14,066 nucleotides of DNA from an uncultured bacterium. GTDB lineage: Bacteria > Zixibacteria > MSB-5A5 > JAABVY01 > JAHJOQ01. Positions 1,701 through 11,421 of the stretch are shown here, piece after piece. A program made the position numbers and the translations under genes. The stretch's first letter is position 1. Every line of letters starts with the position of its first letter. The stretch covers positions 1-14,066 of the forward strand of contig CBDUQR010000057.1 of assembly GCA_965369655.1 (NCBI GenBank), given 5' to 3'. Under the pieces are notes generated by a model. It was not told the DNA's origin, did no database searches, and saw nothing but the letters and a program-made list of their open reading frames with translations.

Positions 1701-2003
1701 CTACCAGGAGCGTCTTCCGCCACCGCCACCGCCGCCGCGGTTCGAACGATCTGAACGATCTTCACGGGGGCGAGCCTGATTCACTTTCAGGTTGCGGCCG
1801 CCGAATTCAGAGCCGTTCAATCCGTCAATAGCAGACTGGGCTTCTTCATCGCTGGACATCTCAACAAAGCCGAACCCTCTCGACTCACCGCTGAATTTGT
1901 CCTTGATGACGTTGATGCTCACCACTTCGCCGTAACTTCCGAAAGCATCTCGCAGCTCATCATCTGTCACACCGTAAGGCAGGTTACCGACGTAGATATT
2001 CAT
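1701..2003 (-). CDS. RNA recognition motif (RRM) RNA-binding protein with Gly-rich tail
   Basis: RNP2 IYVGNL, RNP1 RGFGFVEM, LKVNQARPRE, C-terminal RGGGGGGGRR; GGAG SD at 2010-2013. Confidence 0.96.
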   Translation of the reverse strand: MNIYVGNLPYGVTDDELRDAFGSYGEVVSINVIKDKFSGESRGFGFVEMSSDEEAQSAIDGLNGSEFGGRNLKVNQARPREDRSDRSNRGGGGGGGRRSW

Positions 2004-3123: not shown

Positions 3124-3308
3124 AATTGTCCATTCAATAACTTGGTTTATTCTCTTTGCTTTCATCAAAAAGCAGGAGAGGTGTCAGACGTGTCAAGTTT
3201 CAAAAAGGTTTCTGCTATTCGCCTTGACATTTTGTGATTGTTCGATTTCTTATAAATTGAAAACTATGCATATCCAAAACCGCAATATTAATAGTATTGA
3301 GAGGTTCT

Positions 3309-4529
3309 ATGCAAAAACATCATATCAAAATATGGTTCCCTCTAATTGTTTTTGCATCACTATTAGTTGCATTTAGTTGCTATAAGAAGGATGTTCCGGT
3401 AGGTTCTGAGATTGATACCACAGGGACAACCTGGTCACAAACCTTCGGCGGCTCTAATTTTGACAGGGGTCTATCCGTTGCACCAACCAGTGACGGTGGG
3501 TATATCATAACAGGATCTACAAAATCATTTGGCGCCGGCAATATGGACGTTTACATGATCAAGACAGACGCCTCGGGAAATGAAACCTGGTCAAGAACCT
3601 TCGGCGGCTCTGGTTATGATTATAGTAATTCCGTTGCACCGGTCAGTGACGGTGGGTATATAATAACAGGACAAACAGAATCATTTGGTGCCGGTTCTAA
3701 TGACGTCTACTTGATCAAGACCGACGTCTCGGGGAATGAAACCTGGTCAAATACCTTCGGCGGAACTGATTGGGATAATGGTTTTTCCGTTGCACCGACC
3801 AGTGACAGCGGATATATCATAACAGGAATTACAAGATCATTTGGCGCTGGTGATTGGGACGTTTACCTGATCAAGACCGACGCCTCGGGAAATGAAACCT
3901 GGTCAAAAACATTCGGCGGCTCTGGTTGGGATTGGGGTTGGTCCGTTGCACCGACCAGTGACGGCGGATATATCATAACAGGAGAAACATACTCATTGGG
4001 CGCTGGTTCTGCTGACGTTTACCTGATCAAGACAGACGCCTCGGGAAATGAAACCTGGTCAAGAACATTCGGCGGCTCTAATTTTGACACGGGTAATTCC
4101 GTTGCACCGACCAATGAAGGCGGATATATCATAACAGGAATGACAAAATCATTTGGCGCTGGTGATTATGACGTTTACCTGATCAAGACCGACGCCTTGG
4201 GGAATGAAACCTGGTCAAAAACCTTCGGCGGCTCTGATTCGGATTATGGCTATTCCGTTGCACCGACCAGTGACGGCGGGTATATCATAACAGGAACTAC
4301 AGAGTCATATGGCGCCGGTTCTTATGACGTTTACCTGATCAAGACCGACGCCTCGGGAAATGAAACCTGGTCAAAAACATTCGGCGGCTCTCTTCTGGAT
4401 TTTGGTAGTTCCGTTGCACCGACCAGTGACGGCGGGTATATCATAACAGGATTCAAGATTTCATTTAGTGCTGGTTCAGGGGACGTTTACCTGATCAAGA
4501 CCGACGCCTCGGGAAATGTGAATGAATAA
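3309..4529 (+). CDS. Lipoprotein with seven 52-aa tandem repeats, probable 7-bladed beta-propeller
   Basis: GAGAGG SD then ATG 3309; signal peptide with lipobox-like LVAFS-C; repeat consensus TWSxTFGGSxxDxGxSVAPTSDGGYIITGxTxSFGAGxxDVYLIKTDASGNE. Confidence 0.88.
   Translation: MQKHHIKIWFPLIVFASLLVAFSCYKKDVPVGSEIDTTGTTWSQTFGGSNFDRGLSVAPTSDGGYIITGSTKSFGAGNMDVYMIKTDASGNETWSRTFGGSGYDYSNSVAPVSDGGYIITGQTESFGAGSNDVYLIKTDVSGNETWSNTFGGTDWDNGFSVAPTSDSGYIITGITRSFGAGDWDVYLIKTDASGNETWSKTFGGSGWDWGWSVAPTSDGGYIITGETYSLGAGSADVYLIKTDASGNETWSRTFGGSNFDTGNSVAPTNEGGYIITGMTKSFGAGDYDVYLIKTDALGNETWSKTFGGSDSDYGYSVAPTSDGGYIITGTTESYGAGSYDVYLIKTDASGNETWSKTFGGSLLDFGSSVAPTSDGGYIITGFKISFSAGSGDVYLIKTDASGNVNE
3429..4520 (+). 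repeat. Seven intragenic 156-bp direct repeats
   Basis: ACCTGGTCA starts at 3429, 3585, 3741, 3897, 4053, 4209 and 4365: exact 156-nt period, no indels. Confidence 0.97.
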
Positions 4530-4571: not shown

Positions 4572-4768
4572 GTAGGTCGAAACCTTTACGGTTTCGACAA
4601 TTCTCGTATAGTGCGAAAAGGAAAAAAGATTGTCACGCCTCCCTTCGACAGACTCAGGACTGTGCAAGCAGGCGTGACCTACAAGACTATTCTCCAGTAG
4701 GTCGGTGTTCCGCAGCAGGTGGAGCCTTCAAGTCCCTCGGGATCGGGATCAGCGACCGAAACCCCGAC
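4572..4768. repeat. Three GTAG-type REP-like hairpins
   Basis: GTAG-GTCGAAACC-tttac-GGTTTCGAC (4572-4598, +); GTAG-GTCACGCCT...AGGCGTGAC (4682-4632, -); GTAG-GTCGGTGTT...AACCCCGAC (4697-4768, +, one mismatch). Confidence 0.8.
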
Positions 4769-4785
4769 TCTCTGATAACTGTCCC

Positions 4786-4905
4786 GTCATTGCGAGCGAC
4801 CGACGACAAGTCCTGAGCCTCGAAGGGAGGGAGTGTGGCAATCTTAAGTCAGGCCTCGTATCACGAGAACTGAGATCACCACGTCGCTACACTCCTCGTG
4901 ATGAC
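4786..4905. repeat. Bipartite palindromic element GTCATTGCGAG...GTGGCAATCT / AGATCACCAC...CTCGTGATGAC
   Basis: Imperfect inverted halves 4786-4844 and 4873-4905, central hairpin CTCGT-atc-ACGAG, and module A in reverse at 4810-4827. Confidence 0.8.
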
Positions 4906-4986
4906 AACAGCAGAAACGCGCGCTTAAATGATTTCTTCAACATGTCTTTCGTTATAATGACAGAAACTGTGATGGGATCATTTAGC

Positions 4987-6396
4987 CTATATATTGTAGC
5001 GTTTACGGTCGAGTTCAAACTGGGAATCACATCCGATCAGGTCGCGGCACAGTGAAGAGGCAATATCATCGATTACGTCCGAGCCCTTCTTGACGAGACA
5101 GTGGCAGGCAGCGGAATACAACTCGCTCGAAGGCACGAGACAGATGTCATGCTTCCTTGCGTCGTCAAGGCATTCCATGTCAAACCATATCTCTCGCTCA
5201 GTTGGGGCATTCAGGCGCCACGCATTCCCGATCAGGATGCCTTTGGGCTTCACATGAAAGCTGCTCAATTCTATCCGTTCAACAAGCTCGGATATCTCAT
5301 GTGCGCGAATCGGACCCTGGTCACATGCTGCGGTCTTCACTATCGCCCTGCGAATCCTGTCGCCATTGAAGACAACTTCAAACATCCCCCCGCTCTTCCC
5401 TGGCATTGCCTCCAGTATCTCAAAACCGAGCACACCGAGAGCGACTCTGGATGCCTCGGCCAGATCGAGACCTGTCTCCACAAGCAGGTCGACCAACCGC
5501 ATCGTTTCTTCAACCTTCTCCAGAAGGAGTATTCTCTCGTTTTCGAGAGATGAAATTTGCCTGTCGAGTCTTTCGAGTTCCGCCCTGAAGGGATTTATCG
5601 CATCGAGATCAGACTCGAGGCTTTCGACCCAGGCAGGCCTGACAACTCCAAATGTCTTATTGAAGAGAATTGACTTGAAAGCGTCGACCAGTCTTTTCTC
5701 CTCGTCTCGCACGAGGAACTGTGGGACCAGGAATATTCTGCCGGGCATCGAATCGAAGCTGACTCCCGACACTACAGGATGTTTCGGAGTCGTCGCAGTC
5801 TGAGCGATGACATCAACCCTGCCACCCGGAATCGAGTCCAGAGTCTGTAGACAGTTGATAGGGTATCGTCCGAAAATGCGAGCGAACTGACCGCGCCGAT
5901 CCAGGAATTCGAGAGTGTTCTTGCTGCAATACTCGAACGAGTAATTCCCCAGGAACTCCTGCAACCAGAAGAAGGGCGATACGATCGATTCCGTGTACGA
6001 CTGAGTACCAATGCTGCTCTTCTTGCGGATTTTGAACTGCACATTCGGTATCTGAGCGCGAATCACGAAAATCCCGCCGTTTTCGAGGAGTCTCTGGATG
6101 CCCGCAGTCGCAGCTTTTATCCCGGCGAGGTATCGACGGAAATTGGCTTCGGTGCAGCCGACATATGAGGCGAGTGAAATATCGCTCGTTTCCGGCCTGA
6201 ACCCATGGTCAGCAGCAAAACCGAGCGGATCGAAAAATACGATCCGGTACGACTCGAAATCGATACCACCCCTCAGATCGGACGTCTCGAACGGGTTGCT
6301 CGCATTGTGCCAGTTGAGGAACAGAACCTTACATGTCGAATCGTACTTGATCGACTCCGGTTTTGTTCGAGGAACTGTGAACGGTCGCAATTCCAA
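4987..6396 (-). CDS. Hypothetical protein: N-terminal alpha/beta domain, coiled coil, C-terminal restriction-endonuclease-like fold (probably degenerate)
   Basis: 469-aa ORF; GGAGG upstream, start TTG at 6396 or 6390. Coiled coil RAELERLDRQISSLENERILLLEKVEE; C-terminal LLVETG..ASRVALGVLGFEI..KGILIGNAWRL..ARKHDICLVPSSELY. The CDS is well supported, the fold call is inference. Confidence 0.7.
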   Translation of the reverse strand: MELRPFTVPRTKPESIKYDSTCKVLFLNWHNASNPFETSDLRGGIDFESYRIVFFDPLGFAADHGFRPETSDISLASYVGCTEANFRRYLAGIKAATAGIQRLLENGGIFVIRAQIPNVQFKIRKKSSIGTQSYTESIVSPFFWLQEFLGNYSFEYCSKNTLEFLDRRGQFARIFGRYPINCLQTLDSIPGGRVDVIAQTATTPKHPVVSGVSFDSMPGRIFLVPQFLVRDEEKRLVDAFKSILFNKTFGVVRPAWVESLESDLDAINPFRAELERLDRQISSLENERILLLEKVEETMRLVDLLVETGLDLAEASRVALGVLGFEILEAMPGKSGGMFEVVFNGDRIRRAIVKTAACDQGPIRAHEISELVERIELSSFHVKPKGILIGNAWRLNAPTEREIWFDMECLDDARKHDICLVPSSELYSAACHCLVKKGSDVIDDIASSLCRDLIGCDSQFELDRKRYNI

Positions 6397-6944: not shown

Positions 6945-8048
6945 ATGAAATCGCAGATTCTTTTCGCAGCAGGAATGACCGCAGTAGCGGTTGCCGTCGT
7001 CGCGGGCTTTTTCTTCACAATCGAGAGACGCGATGCGATTCCATCCGTCGAGTCGGCGTTTCTCGAAACCGAAGAGGTTGAGTTCGCCGTCGACATCGAT
7101 GCGGAATTTTCCGCAGAACCGATCATCACCGATACCCCGAGTGTACCGGAGATAGTAATGATTCCGCTCGATACGATCGAGCTTGATTTCTCGAATGTGA
7201 ACTGCGCTGCCGTCATGGGTGGCAAAGCGATGGTCGGTACGGAAGGCGGCATCTTCATCTATGATCCGGTCGAAACATCGATTGAGCTGGTATCGATCTA
7301 CGACGGCCTGATCGATCCCCATGTCACCGCGCTCTGCCCGAATGGTGATCGGATCTACATCGGCACCAGGTCTGGTCTCTTTCTCAGGGATGAGAACGGC
7401 AACGTCGAGCAGATCGCTCCCGACCTGAAGGTCGAGATTACGGCGATCGCCGCGAAGGGCAACGACATCTACATCGGAACCACGACCGACGGCGTAATCA
7501 AAATCTCACCCATCGACACGACTGTCATCCTGAGCAGTCAGAATATCAGGGCGATTGAAGTCGGCGGATCAAACGTCTGGATAGCAGCTTATGACGACGG
7601 TCTGTATTGCTATGACGGTGTAAAATGCCGGAGGCGAAGCCTGATTTCCGACTCGACGGCCCTCGACTGCGTTTCCTCGCTCGGTTTCAAATTCGACAGG
7701 CTCTATGTAGGTACGTCAGAAGGCATGTATGTCTACGATGGCGGTTGCTGGGATATGTATGACGGCGACGACGGTCTCTTAGTCTGTGATGTGACGGCAA
7801 TAACATTCAAAGGCTGGAAAATCCTCGCCGGTACTCGTGACTGGGGATACTTCGAGATCTTCGAGGAATGGGTCAGGCCGATGGCCTGGTCAGAGGCGCT
7901 CGAAGTTACCGCTCTCGCGTCGGATGGAAACCTGGTTGTGCTCGGGACGCCTGACAACGGCGCATATATCGCGACCGAAGATGATGTCCGTCATGTCAAC
8001 CCGGATATCGAGATATTCGAGATTCCACAGTTCGCACTCTTCTTCTGA
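6945..8048 (+). CDS. Membrane-anchored beta-propeller protein (two-component-sensor propeller-like blades)
   Basis: AAGGAG SD then ATG 6945 (ORF-track start 6753 is too early). N-terminal hydrophobic helix, acidic linker, repeated blades VTAL..IYIGTRSGLF, ITAI..IYIGTTTDGV, LYVGTSEGMYVYDG, DGLLVCDVTAI. Confidence 0.8.
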   Translation: MKSQILFAAGMTAVAVAVVAGFFFTIERRDAIPSVESAFLETEEVEFAVDIDAEFSAEPIITDTPSVPEIVMIPLDTIELDFSNVNCAAVMGGKAMVGTEGGIFIYDPVETSIELVSIYDGLIDPHVTALCPNGDRIYIGTRSGLFLRDENGNVEQIAPDLKVEITAIAAKGNDIYIGTTTDGVIKISPIDTTVILSSQNIRAIEVGGSNVWIAAYDDGLYCYDGVKCRRRSLISDSTALDCVSSLGFKFDRLYVGTSEGMYVYDGGCWDMYDGDDGLLVCDVTAITFKGWKILAGTRDWGYFEIFEEWVRPMAWSEALEVTALASDGNLVVLGTPDNGAYIATEDDVRHVNPDIEIFEIPQFALFF

Positions 8049-8057
8049 TCGAATCGA

Positions 8058-8090
8058 CAACGGCTGTCTCAGACAAAGAGACAGCCGTTG
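8058..8090. terminator. Hairpin between convergent genes, probable bidirectional terminator
   Basis: CAACGGCTGTCTC-agacaaa-GAGACAGCCGTTG, perfect 13-bp stem between the stops at 8048 and 8111. Confidence 0.75.
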
Positions 8091-8110
8091 AAATTCCAAA
8101 GATCACGAAA

Positions 8111-9865
8111 TCACATGCCGATGAAACTCTCCCAAAGCTCTCTTGACGATTCAGGCATCGGGCTCCGGAGATTTGCCCGATAGAGCATCCGATTCCCAAG
8201 CGTAATCGTAGTTTTTTTCTTCTCTCCGTTTCTCTCGAAGCCGAGATCGATTTTGTCGCCCGGTTTCATCCCGGCCACCAGTTTGTTCAAGTCCGACGCC
8301 TTGCTCATCTTGAATCCGCGCAATTCACTCAGGACGTCGCCGAACTCGATCCCCGCCTGTTGAGCAGGTCCGCCCGGTTCCACATATTCGACAGAGAGAT
8401 CATTGATGCCGGCCATGAGCAGCCCGATCTGAGGATTTCCGCTCGGCTCATGTTTGATACTGACCCCGTAAGGTTCGATGATCCTGTCGAGATCGATCAC
8501 TTCAGAGCCTCTAAAATGGGCGTCGAGGAGTGAATCGATCTCCGGCAGACCGAGGTCTTTGAACAGGCTGAACAACTCGAACTCAGTGTATCCCCCGGCG
8601 CCGCCATATGAATGTGACAGGCTGTTGAGAGCGCTCTCGATTGCCATCTCGCCACCGCTGTTCTTGTGCATCATGAGATCGAACATAGCAACCATCATAA
8701 ACGAATAGACGCTTCTCTCATCGGAGTTGGGAAGCTGCAGGAGCGCAAACAGCGACAAGCCTTTCCTGCGAAGCTGTTCTGTGTAGGATGTGTATGTCTT
8801 CGCAACTCTGGCCAGGAAATCATCCCTGCTGATAAAACCGAGCCGCAGCATCGATTTCAACTGCATGTAGTTCAAAACGCCGGTAGTGAACCAGTCGAGT
8901 CGCGCGGTTGAGGCAGGCCTGAAGTATCCGGGAGTCCAGAAGCTCAGGAGATTATAGGTGATCAGCCCCATCTGTTCGTCGAGCTGTGACTGGCCTGTCT
9001 TCTCATCTATCAGACAGTTGAAACTGCGCGTGCCAACCGCTCCGTAGCTATGTGTTCCGGATGCCTTTCCTGAGCTCGGCGTGAAATAGACCGTCATGCT
9101 GATTCTGTGATGCGGCAGAGTCCCAAATATGGATACGTAGAAATCGAGGATCGAGTCGATTCGAGGCTGGAGATCGTCGGCGGAAAAGCCAAGCCCTGTG
9201 CGACTGATTCCACAGATGATCGAGTCGCCATCCCTCTCGTATGTCTGCACGTCAAAATCGCCCAGGGCCCAGAATTCGCCGCGCAGGAGACTCAGGCTCC
9301 CAACTCGATAACTGCTCTCGCCAATTTTCTCATACGGCGTTATGAAGACCACATTCTCGGGACCTTCGAACGTGATATCGATATTGCCAATCCTGCTGCC
9401 ATCAGCATCTTTCGGGTACACGACTATCGCGGCGCCTGGAAATATCGCGGCAGTACCCCACATCAGCGGTGTGTCATCGATCCCGAGAGCGCTCTGAGTC
9501 TTATAGTGATCCATCACTATGATGTAGTTCGCAGTGTAGGATCCTTTCAGCCCGCTCGCGCGATATTGTCCAGCCGTGTCCTCCACGAAATCTACGCGTT
9601 CACCATGATTGTCCCGGAGCGTGAAGGCTCTTATGTGTTTCCTGTAACCCCGCGTGTAGTGGTTGTCGACATCATCGAGGACAAACATGACTTCACCCGT
9701 GCGTGCCGGAAACGTGTAATCGGCCTGAACCTCGATGAGTTTCCTCATTGGGTTCGCTATCCTGAACTTGTAGCTCAGGCTCCAGTCATTGGGACTTATA
9801 TCCTGGGCCGCGACGAGCCCGACGCAGAATAGAACAAGAAGCGCTCCAACAGTGACAATCCGCAT
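8111..9865 (-). CDS. Exported peptidase M61-like protein with C-terminal PDZ domain, lacking HExxH
   Basis: Signal peptide; M61-like N-terminal beta domain; helical region ending LDWFTTGVLNY and FDLMMHKNSGGEMAIESAL; PDZ VEYVEPGGPAQQAGIEFGDVLSELRG..KPGDKIDLGFERNG; AAGGGAAGGA SD. Confidence 0.8.
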   Translation of the reverse strand: MRIVTVGALLVLFCVGLVAAQDISPNDWSLSYKFRIANPMRKLIEVQADYTFPARTGEVMFVLDDVDNHYTRGYRKHIRAFTLRDNHGERVDFVEDTAGQYRASGLKGSYTANYIIVMDHYKTQSALGIDDTPLMWGTAAIFPGAAIVVYPKDADGSRIGNIDITFEGPENVVFITPYEKIGESSYRVGSLSLLRGEFWALGDFDVQTYERDGDSIICGISRTGLGFSADDLQPRIDSILDFYVSIFGTLPHHRISMTVYFTPSSGKASGTHSYGAVGTRSFNCLIDEKTGQSQLDEQMGLITYNLLSFWTPGYFRPASTARLDWFTTGVLNYMQLKSMLRLGFISRDDFLARVAKTYTSYTEQLRRKGLSLFALLQLPNSDERSVYSFMMVAMFDLMMHKNSGGEMAIESALNSLSHSYGGAGGYTEFELFSLFKDLGLPEIDSLLDAHFRGSEVIDLDRIIEPYGVSIKHEPSGNPQIGLLMAGINDLSVEYVEPGGPAQQAGIEFGDVLSELRGFKMSKASDLNKLVAGMKPGDKIDLGFERNGEKKKTTITLGNRMLYRANLRSPMPESSRELWESFIGM

Positions 9866-9981
9866 AGCATCCTTCCCTTATGAACTTTCCTCGTTATACA
9901 AACGGCGGCATCTCAGTTGCCACCTTTATTTATCGGCGATACCACGCTCAATCATGTGTGGAAATGCAGTTCGCCGATCAT

Positions 9982-11421
9982 TCAATATATGAATTCTATC
10001 TCGATTCTGCGATTCTTTTCTCTTCCCGCCCTGGTCTGATTGGAGGCAAGAAAGCCGGTCATACCCTTCCCAACAGCCTCGATCCGATCACGATCTGTTC
10101 CGTTCAGCACAAGGTAGTTCCTGATCTTATCGGCTCGCTTCCGGGACAACTTCAAGTTAGCCTCGACGTTCCCGATATTGTCGGTGTAACCAAAAACCTT
10201 CACCGCCACGCCGGGAAATGCCTTCAGCCAGTCAGTCAGGCTATCGAGAAACAATCCTGTCTTCATATCGATTTCCGCACCGCCCGGCTGGTAGCTCACA
10301 TGCAGGACTTTCTTTGAGAAGATCAGAGATTTGTCGAAACAACCATCATTGTCCACCTGATAACCGCGAGGTGTGTTCGGGCACTTGTCGATATCATCCG
10401 GCACGCCGTCCGAATCCTGATCGAGCGGACAACCTGCTGTATCGACAGTCATGTTCAGCGGAGTATCGAAACAATCGTCCATATAGTCAGGCACGCCATC
10501 CGAGTCGATGTCAGTCGGACAACCCGTTTCATCCACAAACCCCTTCGCTTCGATCGGCGTATCGGGACAGAGGTCGATGTCATCTCTAACGCCGTCGTAG
10601 TCCGAATCGGCATAGAAATCATCTGCTGACTGACGCAGGTTATCAAAGGGAGAGCCTCCGTCCGGTTCGCGCTCGATAAAACGAGACGGCTGCTTTCTCA
10701 CGACTGCCATTTCGCCGCTGTCGCGCCATTTCTCCCACAACGTTCTGTGGCGCTTTCCGAAATAGAACGCGAGTCCGACCTTGAAATTGGCATACCCTCT
10801 CGACCTGTAGTCCTCGGTTGCATCGTCGAAATCAGCGCCGATACCGGTAAGATAGAAAAGCTCAATGTTATAGTTGATGCTCCACCGGGGATGGATAAAG
10901 CTCTCGGCTCCGATCCCGCCGAGAATGAAAAGCTCGGTCGCTTTGTAGTCTGTGTCGGAGCCACCGGAGTTAGTTACGGACACGGGCTGACCTGTCGCGA
11001 TGCTCCTGATGTCCCAGATGGAGAGCCCTACGCCGAGTTTCGCATACGGCATGAACGATCCTTCGGGATAGACATAGATTTTTCCGGCCAGTCCGAAACC
11101 ATAATTCTTCCAGACCTCGTTGGCGTTCTCGCGACCGATCTTGAATGTTTCAATCGACACGGAATCGTTGTAAACTTTGGAGTAGGAGAACAGCGGCCCG
11201 ACAGACAGTCTCTCGGTTGCCTTGTAATAGAATCTCGCTTCAAAGGTGGGCGAAATGACCCAGGGCTGACTGTTGCGGTTGAATGTGGCTTGCCTCACTC
11301 CGGCGCCGAGGTTGATCGACCACCTCCTGCCAAGTCCGGCTGTGGCGTCCGACAGCGGAGCCAGACAGAATGCCAGGATCATCAGACGCAGCAACGCATT
11401 TCTTGCCGTTACGCAAACCAT
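9982..11421 (-). CDS. OmpA-family outer membrane protein: beta-barrel, TSP3-like Ca-binding repeats, OmpA C-terminal peptidoglycan-binding domain
   Basis: Signal peptide; barrel strands (FMPYAKLGVG, FKVGLAFYFG); three DxDxDGVxDxxDxC repeats at about 10339-10608; GYTDNIG..NLKLSRKRA..NRRIEI. Start may be the later Met (MILAF). Confidence 0.92.
   Translation of the reverse strand: MVCVTARNALLRLMILAFCLAPLSDATAGLGRRWSINLGAGVRQATFNRNSQPWVISPTFEARFYYKATERLSVGPLFSYSKVYNDSVSIETFKIGRENANEVWKNYGFGLAGKIYVYPEGSFMPYAKLGVGLSIWDIRSIATGQPVSVTNSGGSDTDYKATELFILGGIGAESFIHPRWSINYNIELFYLTGIGADFDDATEDYRSRGYANFKVGLAFYFGKRHRTLWEKWRDSGEMAVVRKQPSRFIEREPDGGSPFDNLRQSADDFYADSDYDGVRDDIDLCPDTPIEAKGFVDETGCPTDIDSDGVPDYMDDCFDTPLNMTVDTAGCPLDQDSDGVPDDIDKCPNTPRGYQVDNDGCFDKSLIFSKKVLHVSYQPGGAEIDMKTGLFLDSLTDWLKAFPGVAVKVFGYTDNIGNVEANLKLSRKRADKIRNYLVLNGTDRDRIEAVGKGMTGFLASNQTRAGREKNRRIEIEFIY

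Follow-up and report, generated by a model that had tools for sequence, protein, structure and literature searches.

Beta-propellers in which near-identical tandem blades carry a few diversified residues on the top face are known from the fungal WD40 proteins HET-D, HET-E and HNWD (Paoletti 2007, PMC1805685), and the same design has been noted in highly repetitive WD40 (HR-WD40) proteins of prokaryotes (Hu 2017, PMC5587647). Recently amplified beta-propellers in general are described as being born by blade amplification and then decaying (Pereira and Lupas 2022, PMC9218822). The cyanobacterial alkylating enzyme CylK contains a seven-bladed propeller (PDB 7RON, 7FH6; Braffman 2022, PMC8916777) whose top face is formed by the blade-connecting loops together with internal loops that are unusually long, and whose residues Leu438, Asp440, Tyr473, Phe499, Ser318 and Glu374 sit in the active-site cleft of that face. 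The gene described here lies at positions 3309..4529 of the forward strand of contig CBDUQR010000057.1, from an uncultured bacterium of the Zixibacteria (GenBank assembly GCA_965369655.1), and was analysed within the 14,066 nucleotides of that contig, which are called the window throughout. It encodes a protein of 406 residues, probably exported, with a predicted seven-bladed propeller in which eight codons of every blade are hypervariable on an otherwise near-invariant scaffold.

An earlier note on this DNA had compared the gene to the fungal HET-E/HNWD proteins, and as a way of working the analogy is apt. With these and with the HR-WD40 proteins the propeller has in common near-identical tandem blades, a remainder that is conserved even at many silent sites, and a few diversifying codons per blade, which are predicted to lie on the interaction (top) face. 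However, it belongs to a different propeller family from all of these, with no WD40 match in Pfam and no NTPase match, and it has eight variable positions per 52-residue blade as against four per WD repeat. Whereas theirs serve as sensor domains within cytoplasmic NACHT/STAND proteins, this propeller appears to be exported and to stand alone, and its genome holds no paralogue pool for repeat exchange. Like the recently amplified propellers, it has blades that are more alike within than between proteins, no correspondence by blade index, and a family that forms a continuum from young to decayed arrays; the words "hypervariable", "DUF5122", "SBBP" and "delta-60" have 0 occurrences in the main text of PMC9218822, the supplements of which might list family members. 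With the CylK propeller it shares the seven blades and the use of the same top-face positions for the functional residues, but CylK is a two-domain enzyme with a calcium-binding beta-roll whose blades are not near-identical, while the present protein has neither the beta-roll nor the catalytic residues. The curated models NF047494 (SBBP repeat lipoprotein, LipL53 family), TIGR02608 (delta-60 repeat) and PF17164 (DUF5122) also comprise beta-propeller repeats of exported proteins and give weak blade-motif matches, all of them below cut-off (55.8 against 400, 45.2 against 76.5, and 11.4 against 27 bits, respectively), and by their present definitions it falls outside all three families; the DUF5122 cut-off is passed by 3 of the 6 relatives scanned. 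The family is not mentioned in the excerpts used of Kaur et al. 2020 (PMC7159879) and of a tandem-repeat survey (PMC11417379), and no description of hypervariability in it was found in the literature searched (supplements excluded).

The array was identified by Tandem Repeats Finder as 7.0 copies of a 156-nt period at 3428-4518. Cut into seven 156-nt units, the stretch 3429-4520 gives an ungapped alignment with a mean column identity of 89%, and each unit translates to a 52-residue repeat, seven in all. The blade repeats assigned from the alignment and the structural model, all on the forward strand, are 3429..3584 (repeat 1, which lends its first strand to the last structural blade as the outer one and so closes the ring), 3585..3740 (repeat 2), 3741..3896 (repeat 3), 3897..4052 (repeat 4), 4053..4208 (repeat 5), 4209..4364 (repeat 6) and 4365..4520 (repeat 7). 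In every blade the codons at repeat positions 10, 11, 13, 15, 30, 32, 38 and 39 are hypervariable (the nucleotide of each being the blade start + 3 x (position - 1)), and position 4 is moderately variable too (Q,R,N,K,R,K,K). Pairwise between blades, the proportions of synonymous (pS) and non-synonymous (pN) differences by the Nei-Gojobori method are 0.202 and 0.045 for the 43 scaffold codons, whereas pN at the eight hypervariable codons is 0.654, which is near saturation and close to what unrelated codons would give; paired codons differ there at 1.3-2.4 nucleotides. Hypervariable pN is thus about 3.2 times scaffold pS, and about 6 times after Jukes-Cantor correction (1.54 vs 0.235). Variable alignment columns are concentrated accordingly, 26 of 57 falling within the 27 nucleotides of nine variable codons (hypergeometric P = 9e-13). 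The contrast between a near-invariant scaffold and eight hypervariable positions drawn in the earlier note is therefore confirmed, every residue string listed there being reproduced, and non-synonymous divergence at the eight sites does exceed the synonymous divergence of the scaffold. The 56 hypervariable residues include 17 aromatic ones and 21 that are Asn, Ser, Asp or Gly; identity at these positions within the protein is 0.10-0.11.

We also noticed that the two-fold degenerate codons ending in a pyrimidine (NNY) at the hypervariable positions of this gene end in T in 21 of 23 cases, compared with 45% in the long open reading frames (ORFs) of the genome (P = 5e-6); at the ends of its scaffold NNY codons the counts are 26 T and 36 C. 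The bias is not family-wide, being found in 49 of 97 genes (Wilcoxon p = 0.22), with a trend by array age of 23 of 34 young-array genes versus 26 of 63 old ones. It could be due to AT-biased new mutations or to foreign origin.

An AlphaFold2 model built with 49 relatives has a mean predicted local distance difference test (pLDDT) value of 92.8 and a predicted template-modelling (TM) score of 0.87, and consists of 28 strands in a 7x4 beta-propeller, with strands at repeat coordinates 52-6, 11-19, 25-31 and 39-46. Together with the lipobox match described below, it upholds the proposal of a seven-blade propeller with a lipoprotein-type signal. The best Foldseek match is the CylK propeller (TM 0.82, 28% identity), whose domain is also the only solved sequence relative (E 3e-24, phmmer versus PDB); the next matches are designed propellers and Photorhabdus lectins with TM of about 0.45-0.63. 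In the model, positions 10 and 11 are at the end of the loop between repeat strands 1 and 2, positions 13 and 15 are at the start of strand 2, the innermost strand, and positions 30/32 and 38/39 flank the loop between strands 3 and 4, that is, the internal B-C loop. Because the strands form an antiparallel meander, the 1-2 and 3-4 loops are expected on the same side. The loop insertions of CylK align at repeat positions 32/33 and 35/36; these insertions are in the 3-4 loop, and repeat strands 2, 3, 4 and 1 are therefore taken as A, B, C and D, which places the eight sites on the top face. The CylK alignment was read by hand (chain index + 8 = paper numbering, checked on Leu438, Asp440, Tyr473 and Phe499). 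In it Leu438 aligns with repeat position 11, Asp440 and Ser318 with position 13, Tyr473 with position 39, Phe499 with position 13 of the next blade, and Glu374, in a low-confidence stretch, with position 13. The model and this alignment thus put all eight hypervariable sites in or beside two sets of loops forming one (top) face, as the earlier note had proposed.

The family to which the protein belongs is very large. A full scan of 1.84 billion cluster representatives returned 104,494 proteins at E <=1e-3 and 27,228 at E <=1e-30, many of them giant chains with more than one propeller, and a word-indexed search gave at least 8,000 significant relatives, the best non-self matches being 45-70% identical. 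Among the 120 proteins listed, query included, 108 have seven blades. The same eight positions in the 119 listed relatives show an entropy of 3.2-3.9 bits and a within-protein identity of 0.13-0.21, whereas scaffold identity within one protein reaches 0.96; pooled over the proteins, these positions contain Y 17%, S 12%, G 9%, D 9%, N 8%, E 7% and W 5%. In the 108 seven-blade proteins the mean scaffold identity is 0.774 within a protein, and between proteins it is 0.686 for blades of equal index versus 0.685 for unequal index, which means that blades have no positional orthology between proteins; between-protein identity at the hypervariable positions is 0.11, the chance value. The N-termini of 107 relatives that start with Met comprise 22 with a lipobox-like motif and 59 with another hydrophobic stretch, and the 119 listed relatives include 36 with a T9SS sorting domain (PF18962), 10 with PKD domains and 4 with dockerin and cohesin, so that export, predicted from such signals, is the rule across the family. 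Genomes with a close relative are from many bacterial phyla, Thermoplasmatota, Methanophagales, Methanosarcinales, Bathyarchaeia and one Asgard archaeon. Several giant proteins (P0122-P0128, 1,300-7,241 residues) have up to ten matched propeller stretches, that is, several propellers per chain. A viral contig (L138) encodes at 5003-6364 a family member of 453 residues with 40% identity to the query; genes for the large subunit of a terminase (7398-8813) and for a portal protein (8810-10213) begin about 1 kb downstream of it, which places the family in at least one genuine phage genome; phage records gave only three distant matches, 27-32% identical.

The history of the variation was examined in 96 genes with at least six blades, a set that spans Bacteria and Archaea. 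Scaffold pS runs continuously from 0.09 to 0.80 and scaffold pN tracks it (rho 0.80), but hypervariable pN is 0.60, 0.60, 0.61 and 0.64 across four bins of scaffold pS (rho 0.27). A further 13 genes from the same genome and its relatives show the same pS and pN range. The ten youngest arrays have a hypervariable pN of 0.51-0.67 at a scaffold pS of 0.09-0.29; in the youngest of all (L108, L061 and L113, with scaffold pS/hypervariable pN of 0.091/0.533, 0.142/0.510 and 0.163/0.582, respectively) the scaffold DNA is almost identical while the eight codons carry multi-nucleotide differences. Archaeal members are among these youngest arrays, L108 being from a Methanophagales metagenome-assembled genome (MAG) and L113 from an Asgard MAG. 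Four pairs of orthologues compared blade by blade give scaffold pS/hypervariable pN values of 0.080/0.031, 0.085/0.093, 0.166/0.124 and 0.270/0.029, a hypervariable pN to scaffold pS ratio of 0.1 to 1.1. These pairs show no running mutator at the hypervariable codons. The array history is consistent with propellers that are born time and again through amplification of a blade and then decay, the top face differentiating very fast early on.

Several points weigh against selected divergence of one binding face on a surface-anchored protein. Hypervariable pN is more than 1.5 times scaffold pS in only 22 of the 96 genes, the remainder being saturated and uninformative. In the established orthologues L105 and L119 the hypervariable sites are more conserved than silent ones (0.029 vs 0.270), which means that the family is not under diversifying selection at all times. 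If gene conversion keeps silent sites alike, scaffold pS could understate the age of an array and inflate the contrast in the ratio of non-synonymous to synonymous divergence (dN/dS). In the array itself no single tree accommodates 19 of the 28 pairs that informative scaffold sites form, which fits recombination between blades, though the permutation test given below is flat. The assignment of the eight sites to one face comes from strand topology and the hand-read CylK alignment, and the lipobox from a regular-expression match to a lipoprotein pattern of the PROSITE kind.

We consider it probable that the gene encodes an exported, CylK-related seven-bladed propeller in which an invariant scaffold carries a custom binding face of 56 residues, diversified in an early burst. 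The protein belongs to the very large uncharacterised family related to the CylK propeller domain described above. Its 7 x 8 = 56 variable residues would form one asymmetric surface, rich in Tyr, Trp, Phe, Asn, Ser and Asp, on a rigid scaffold, and this surface may be a custom binding site for one ligand, protein or glycan. The array may have arisen by recent blade amplification, or have been homogenised by inter-blade recombination, after which the top-face codons would have diverged under diversifying selection, in an early burst and not through a continuing mutator. Selection as the cause of that divergence is what we infer.

The alternative closest to this is concerted evolution of the HET-E/HNWD type, in which continual exchange of blades or parts of blades within the gene and among paralogues would make it a running generator of specificities. 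Traces of exchange are present. Scaffold nucleotide differences are 6-10 among the central blades 3-6 and 8-16 between blades 1, 2 or 7 and the others, and the incompatible site pairs and the equal identity of blades of equal and unequal index point the same way. The codons at 10/11/13 of L108 are identical in blades 3, 5 and 6 while its other hypervariable clusters differ. The metagenome contig L031 has two adjacent seven-blade paralogues with one common scaffold (pS 0.12-0.39 for most blade pairs, and 0.39-0.58 for blade 4 of the first gene versus blades of the second), and positional correspondence between them is seen only in blades 1 and 7 (pS 0.12 and 0.14) and not in the internal blades, the classic signature that unequal crossing-over among internal repeats would leave. 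Inter-blade recombination therefore probably contributes to the history of these arrays. Exchange of a continual kind nevertheless appears unlikely to us. A pairwise homoplasy index (PHI)-type permutation test for inter-blade recombination was flat, without positional signal (p = 0.52), and scaffold pS is at least 0.5 in 63 of the 96 genes, so homogenisation is not maintained. The shuffling of blades among paralogues proposed in the earlier note found no counterpart here: in the genome, which is 99.5% complete, no paralogous or orphan blade with similar DNA was detected (blastn, word 7, E <=10), only chance matches of 18-47 nt outside the array, and at the protein level no paralogue exceeds 35-41% identity; the array of the one that was analysed (C14, L002) is old, for which reason blade exchange among paralogues is not shown in this genome. 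Nor did the gene prove variable among strains. The listed contig pieces from three runs of one marine-sediment study have 0 differences, although these runs are probably the source samples and not independent, and contigs as such would hide rare variants; in metagenome contigs no variant allele was found, the best of 17 loci being 62-65% identical. The same pieces tile nearly the whole array, which argues against a further, technical reading, that the array is an assembly chimera of several family members in the metagenome. Such an artefact would find an opportunity in the repetitive array and in the same-scaffold contigs of other organisms, which pile on it at high depth and make spurious joints, but the frame is intact, the number of blades is that of 108 of the 120 listed proteins, and no more than about 69 nt separate one hypervariable cluster from the next, a stretch that ordinary reads should span. 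We regard a chimera as very improbable.

The remaining alternatives concern what the propeller does or what makes it vary. Multivalent propeller lectins generally have the same binding residues in every blade. A lectin of the Photorhabdus PLL/PHL or tachylectin type, with a similar sugar site per blade, would account for the presence of PHL/PLL lectins among the Foldseek matches (TM about 0.6, E about 1e-10), the predicted extracellular location, and variable residues whose richness in aromatics, Asn and Asp suits sugar binding; yet it is a poor fit, since the candidate binding residues differ in every blade, and the identity to lectins is only 14-17%, and on balance we find it improbable. An alkylating enzyme of the CylK/BrtB type is suggested by the sequence and fold matches to CylK given above. 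The calcium-binding N-terminal domain supplying the essential Arg105 is absent, however, the CylK catalytic positions Tyr473 and Asp440 are hypervariable here and not conserved, and no halogenase or resorcinol genes occur among the ten window ORFs scanned. With the N-terminal domain and the catalytic residues missing, the protein is not a CylK-type enzyme, or is one with only the slightest probability. If the hypermutation were programmed, whether by a diversity-generating retroelement or by another mutator with similar targeting, it would explain the extreme, codon-focused variation and perhaps the T-ending NNY codons of this gene, but that bias is in only about half of the genes as given above. 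Moreover, the 99.5%-complete genome has 0 RVT_1 (reverse transcriptase) matches, while the same search is positive in 3 of 14 control genomes; nowhere does it contain a second, template-like version of the array; the majority bases at variable columns (T 11, A 9, G 2, C 1) are not adenine-specific; and the orthologue pairs show no excess change at hypervariable codons. A retroelement is thus hardly credible here. A more speculative idea is that some unknown process, independent of reverse transcriptase, rewrites or swaps top-face codons at the birth of a propeller in many phyla of Bacteria and Archaea. It is prompted by the near-saturation of these codons in the youngest arrays, the little change they show in established orthologues, and NNY codons that ignore host usage, and we hold it to be a long shot beside the early burst under selection that we favour.

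The propeller gene starts at ATG 3309, as does the database copy of the protein, and ends with the stop TAA at 4527-4529. An in-frame TTG at 3297 is an alternative start from the ORF list, and a Shine-Dalgarno-like GAGAGG is read at 3299..3304, 4 nt before the ATG; no sigma-70-type promoter match was found upstream of the gene, and scans for promoters and terminators did not exceed what shuffled sequence would yield. At the N-terminus, basic residues come first, then a hydrophobic helix (residues 6-23 in the model), followed by a lipobox-like motif with Cys24 (codon 3378-3380) at +1, which defines a putative signal peptide with a terminal lipobox at 3309..3380 on the forward strand. A low-confidence linker of residues 25-40 follows at 3381..3428 (forward strand; pLDDT <50 at residues 26-37), and the architecture comprises signal peptide, linker and propeller only. 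The protein is thus probably exported and lipid-anchored, and would be lipidated and exposed at the cell surface. The neighbours, a methyltransferase gene and an unannotated gene of 469 aa, both on the opposite strand, are unrelated, and no genes of related function were found among them. The propeller is a single gene and not a multi-part system; the diversified binding-protein system of the earlier note stands as to a diversified protein, which may bind, and falls as to the system, there being no reverse transcriptase and only unrelated genes beside it. Elsewhere in the window, a single RRM_1-domain protein of 100 residues (1701-2003, reverse strand) and an outer-membrane protein of the OmpA family that carries a thrombospondin type 3 repeat (9982-11421, reverse strand) look ordinary.

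The genomic slot of the gene is variable. The same-genus genome G001 has both flanking genes on one contig with a different ORF of 210 codons between them, and in G004 the flanking genes are about 100 bp apart; no propeller orthologue was found in a same-genus genome. The occupant of the slot in G001, a sister species (L047 847-1479), is an unrelated predicted membrane protein of 210 aa. The GC content of the gene is 0.471, compared with 0.518 for the genome, and AnmK, a housekeeping protein encoded in the window, finds relatives at identities of 88, 82 and 75%, the nearest named ones being from Zixibacteria, as against 70% for the best match of the propeller. The downstream spacer (4590-4950) is pieced together from short repeats of about 30-160 nt that are dispersed through the genome, where each has up to about 46 matches; two pieces of 28-31 nt recur at 554-581 and 592-622, and in the three runs the spacer has a very high contig depth that reaches 364. 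These repeats look like an intergenic element family of the repetitive extragenic palindromic (REP) or miniature inverted-repeat transposable element (MITE) kind. The variable slot, the GC offset, the spacer repeats and the AnmK and propeller identities suggest recent gain or fast turnover of the gene.

The earlier note had called the locus the best candidate for a novel system in the window, which is too strong for one gene of a very large family whose design is already published for WD40 proteins (PMC5587647). The design principle is known and the propeller is ordinary in principle; what deserves notice is chiefly how large and widespread its family is. Some 100,000 protein clusters have this 52-residue blade type, and they range from bacteria like the Zixibacteria to the anaerobic methanotrophic (ANME) archaea, Bathyarchaeia, Asgard archaea and at least one phage, with the same eight antibody-like positions, rich in Tyr, Ser, Gly and Asp, throughout, and often with T9SS, PKD or dockerin modules. 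If the codon-rewriting process mentioned above were true, it would be a way of minting binding proteins shared by Bacteria and Archaea. The family is a candidate for a natural scaffold for engineered binders and, in sediments, for a major class of proteins of extracellular recognition that has so far gone unstudied.

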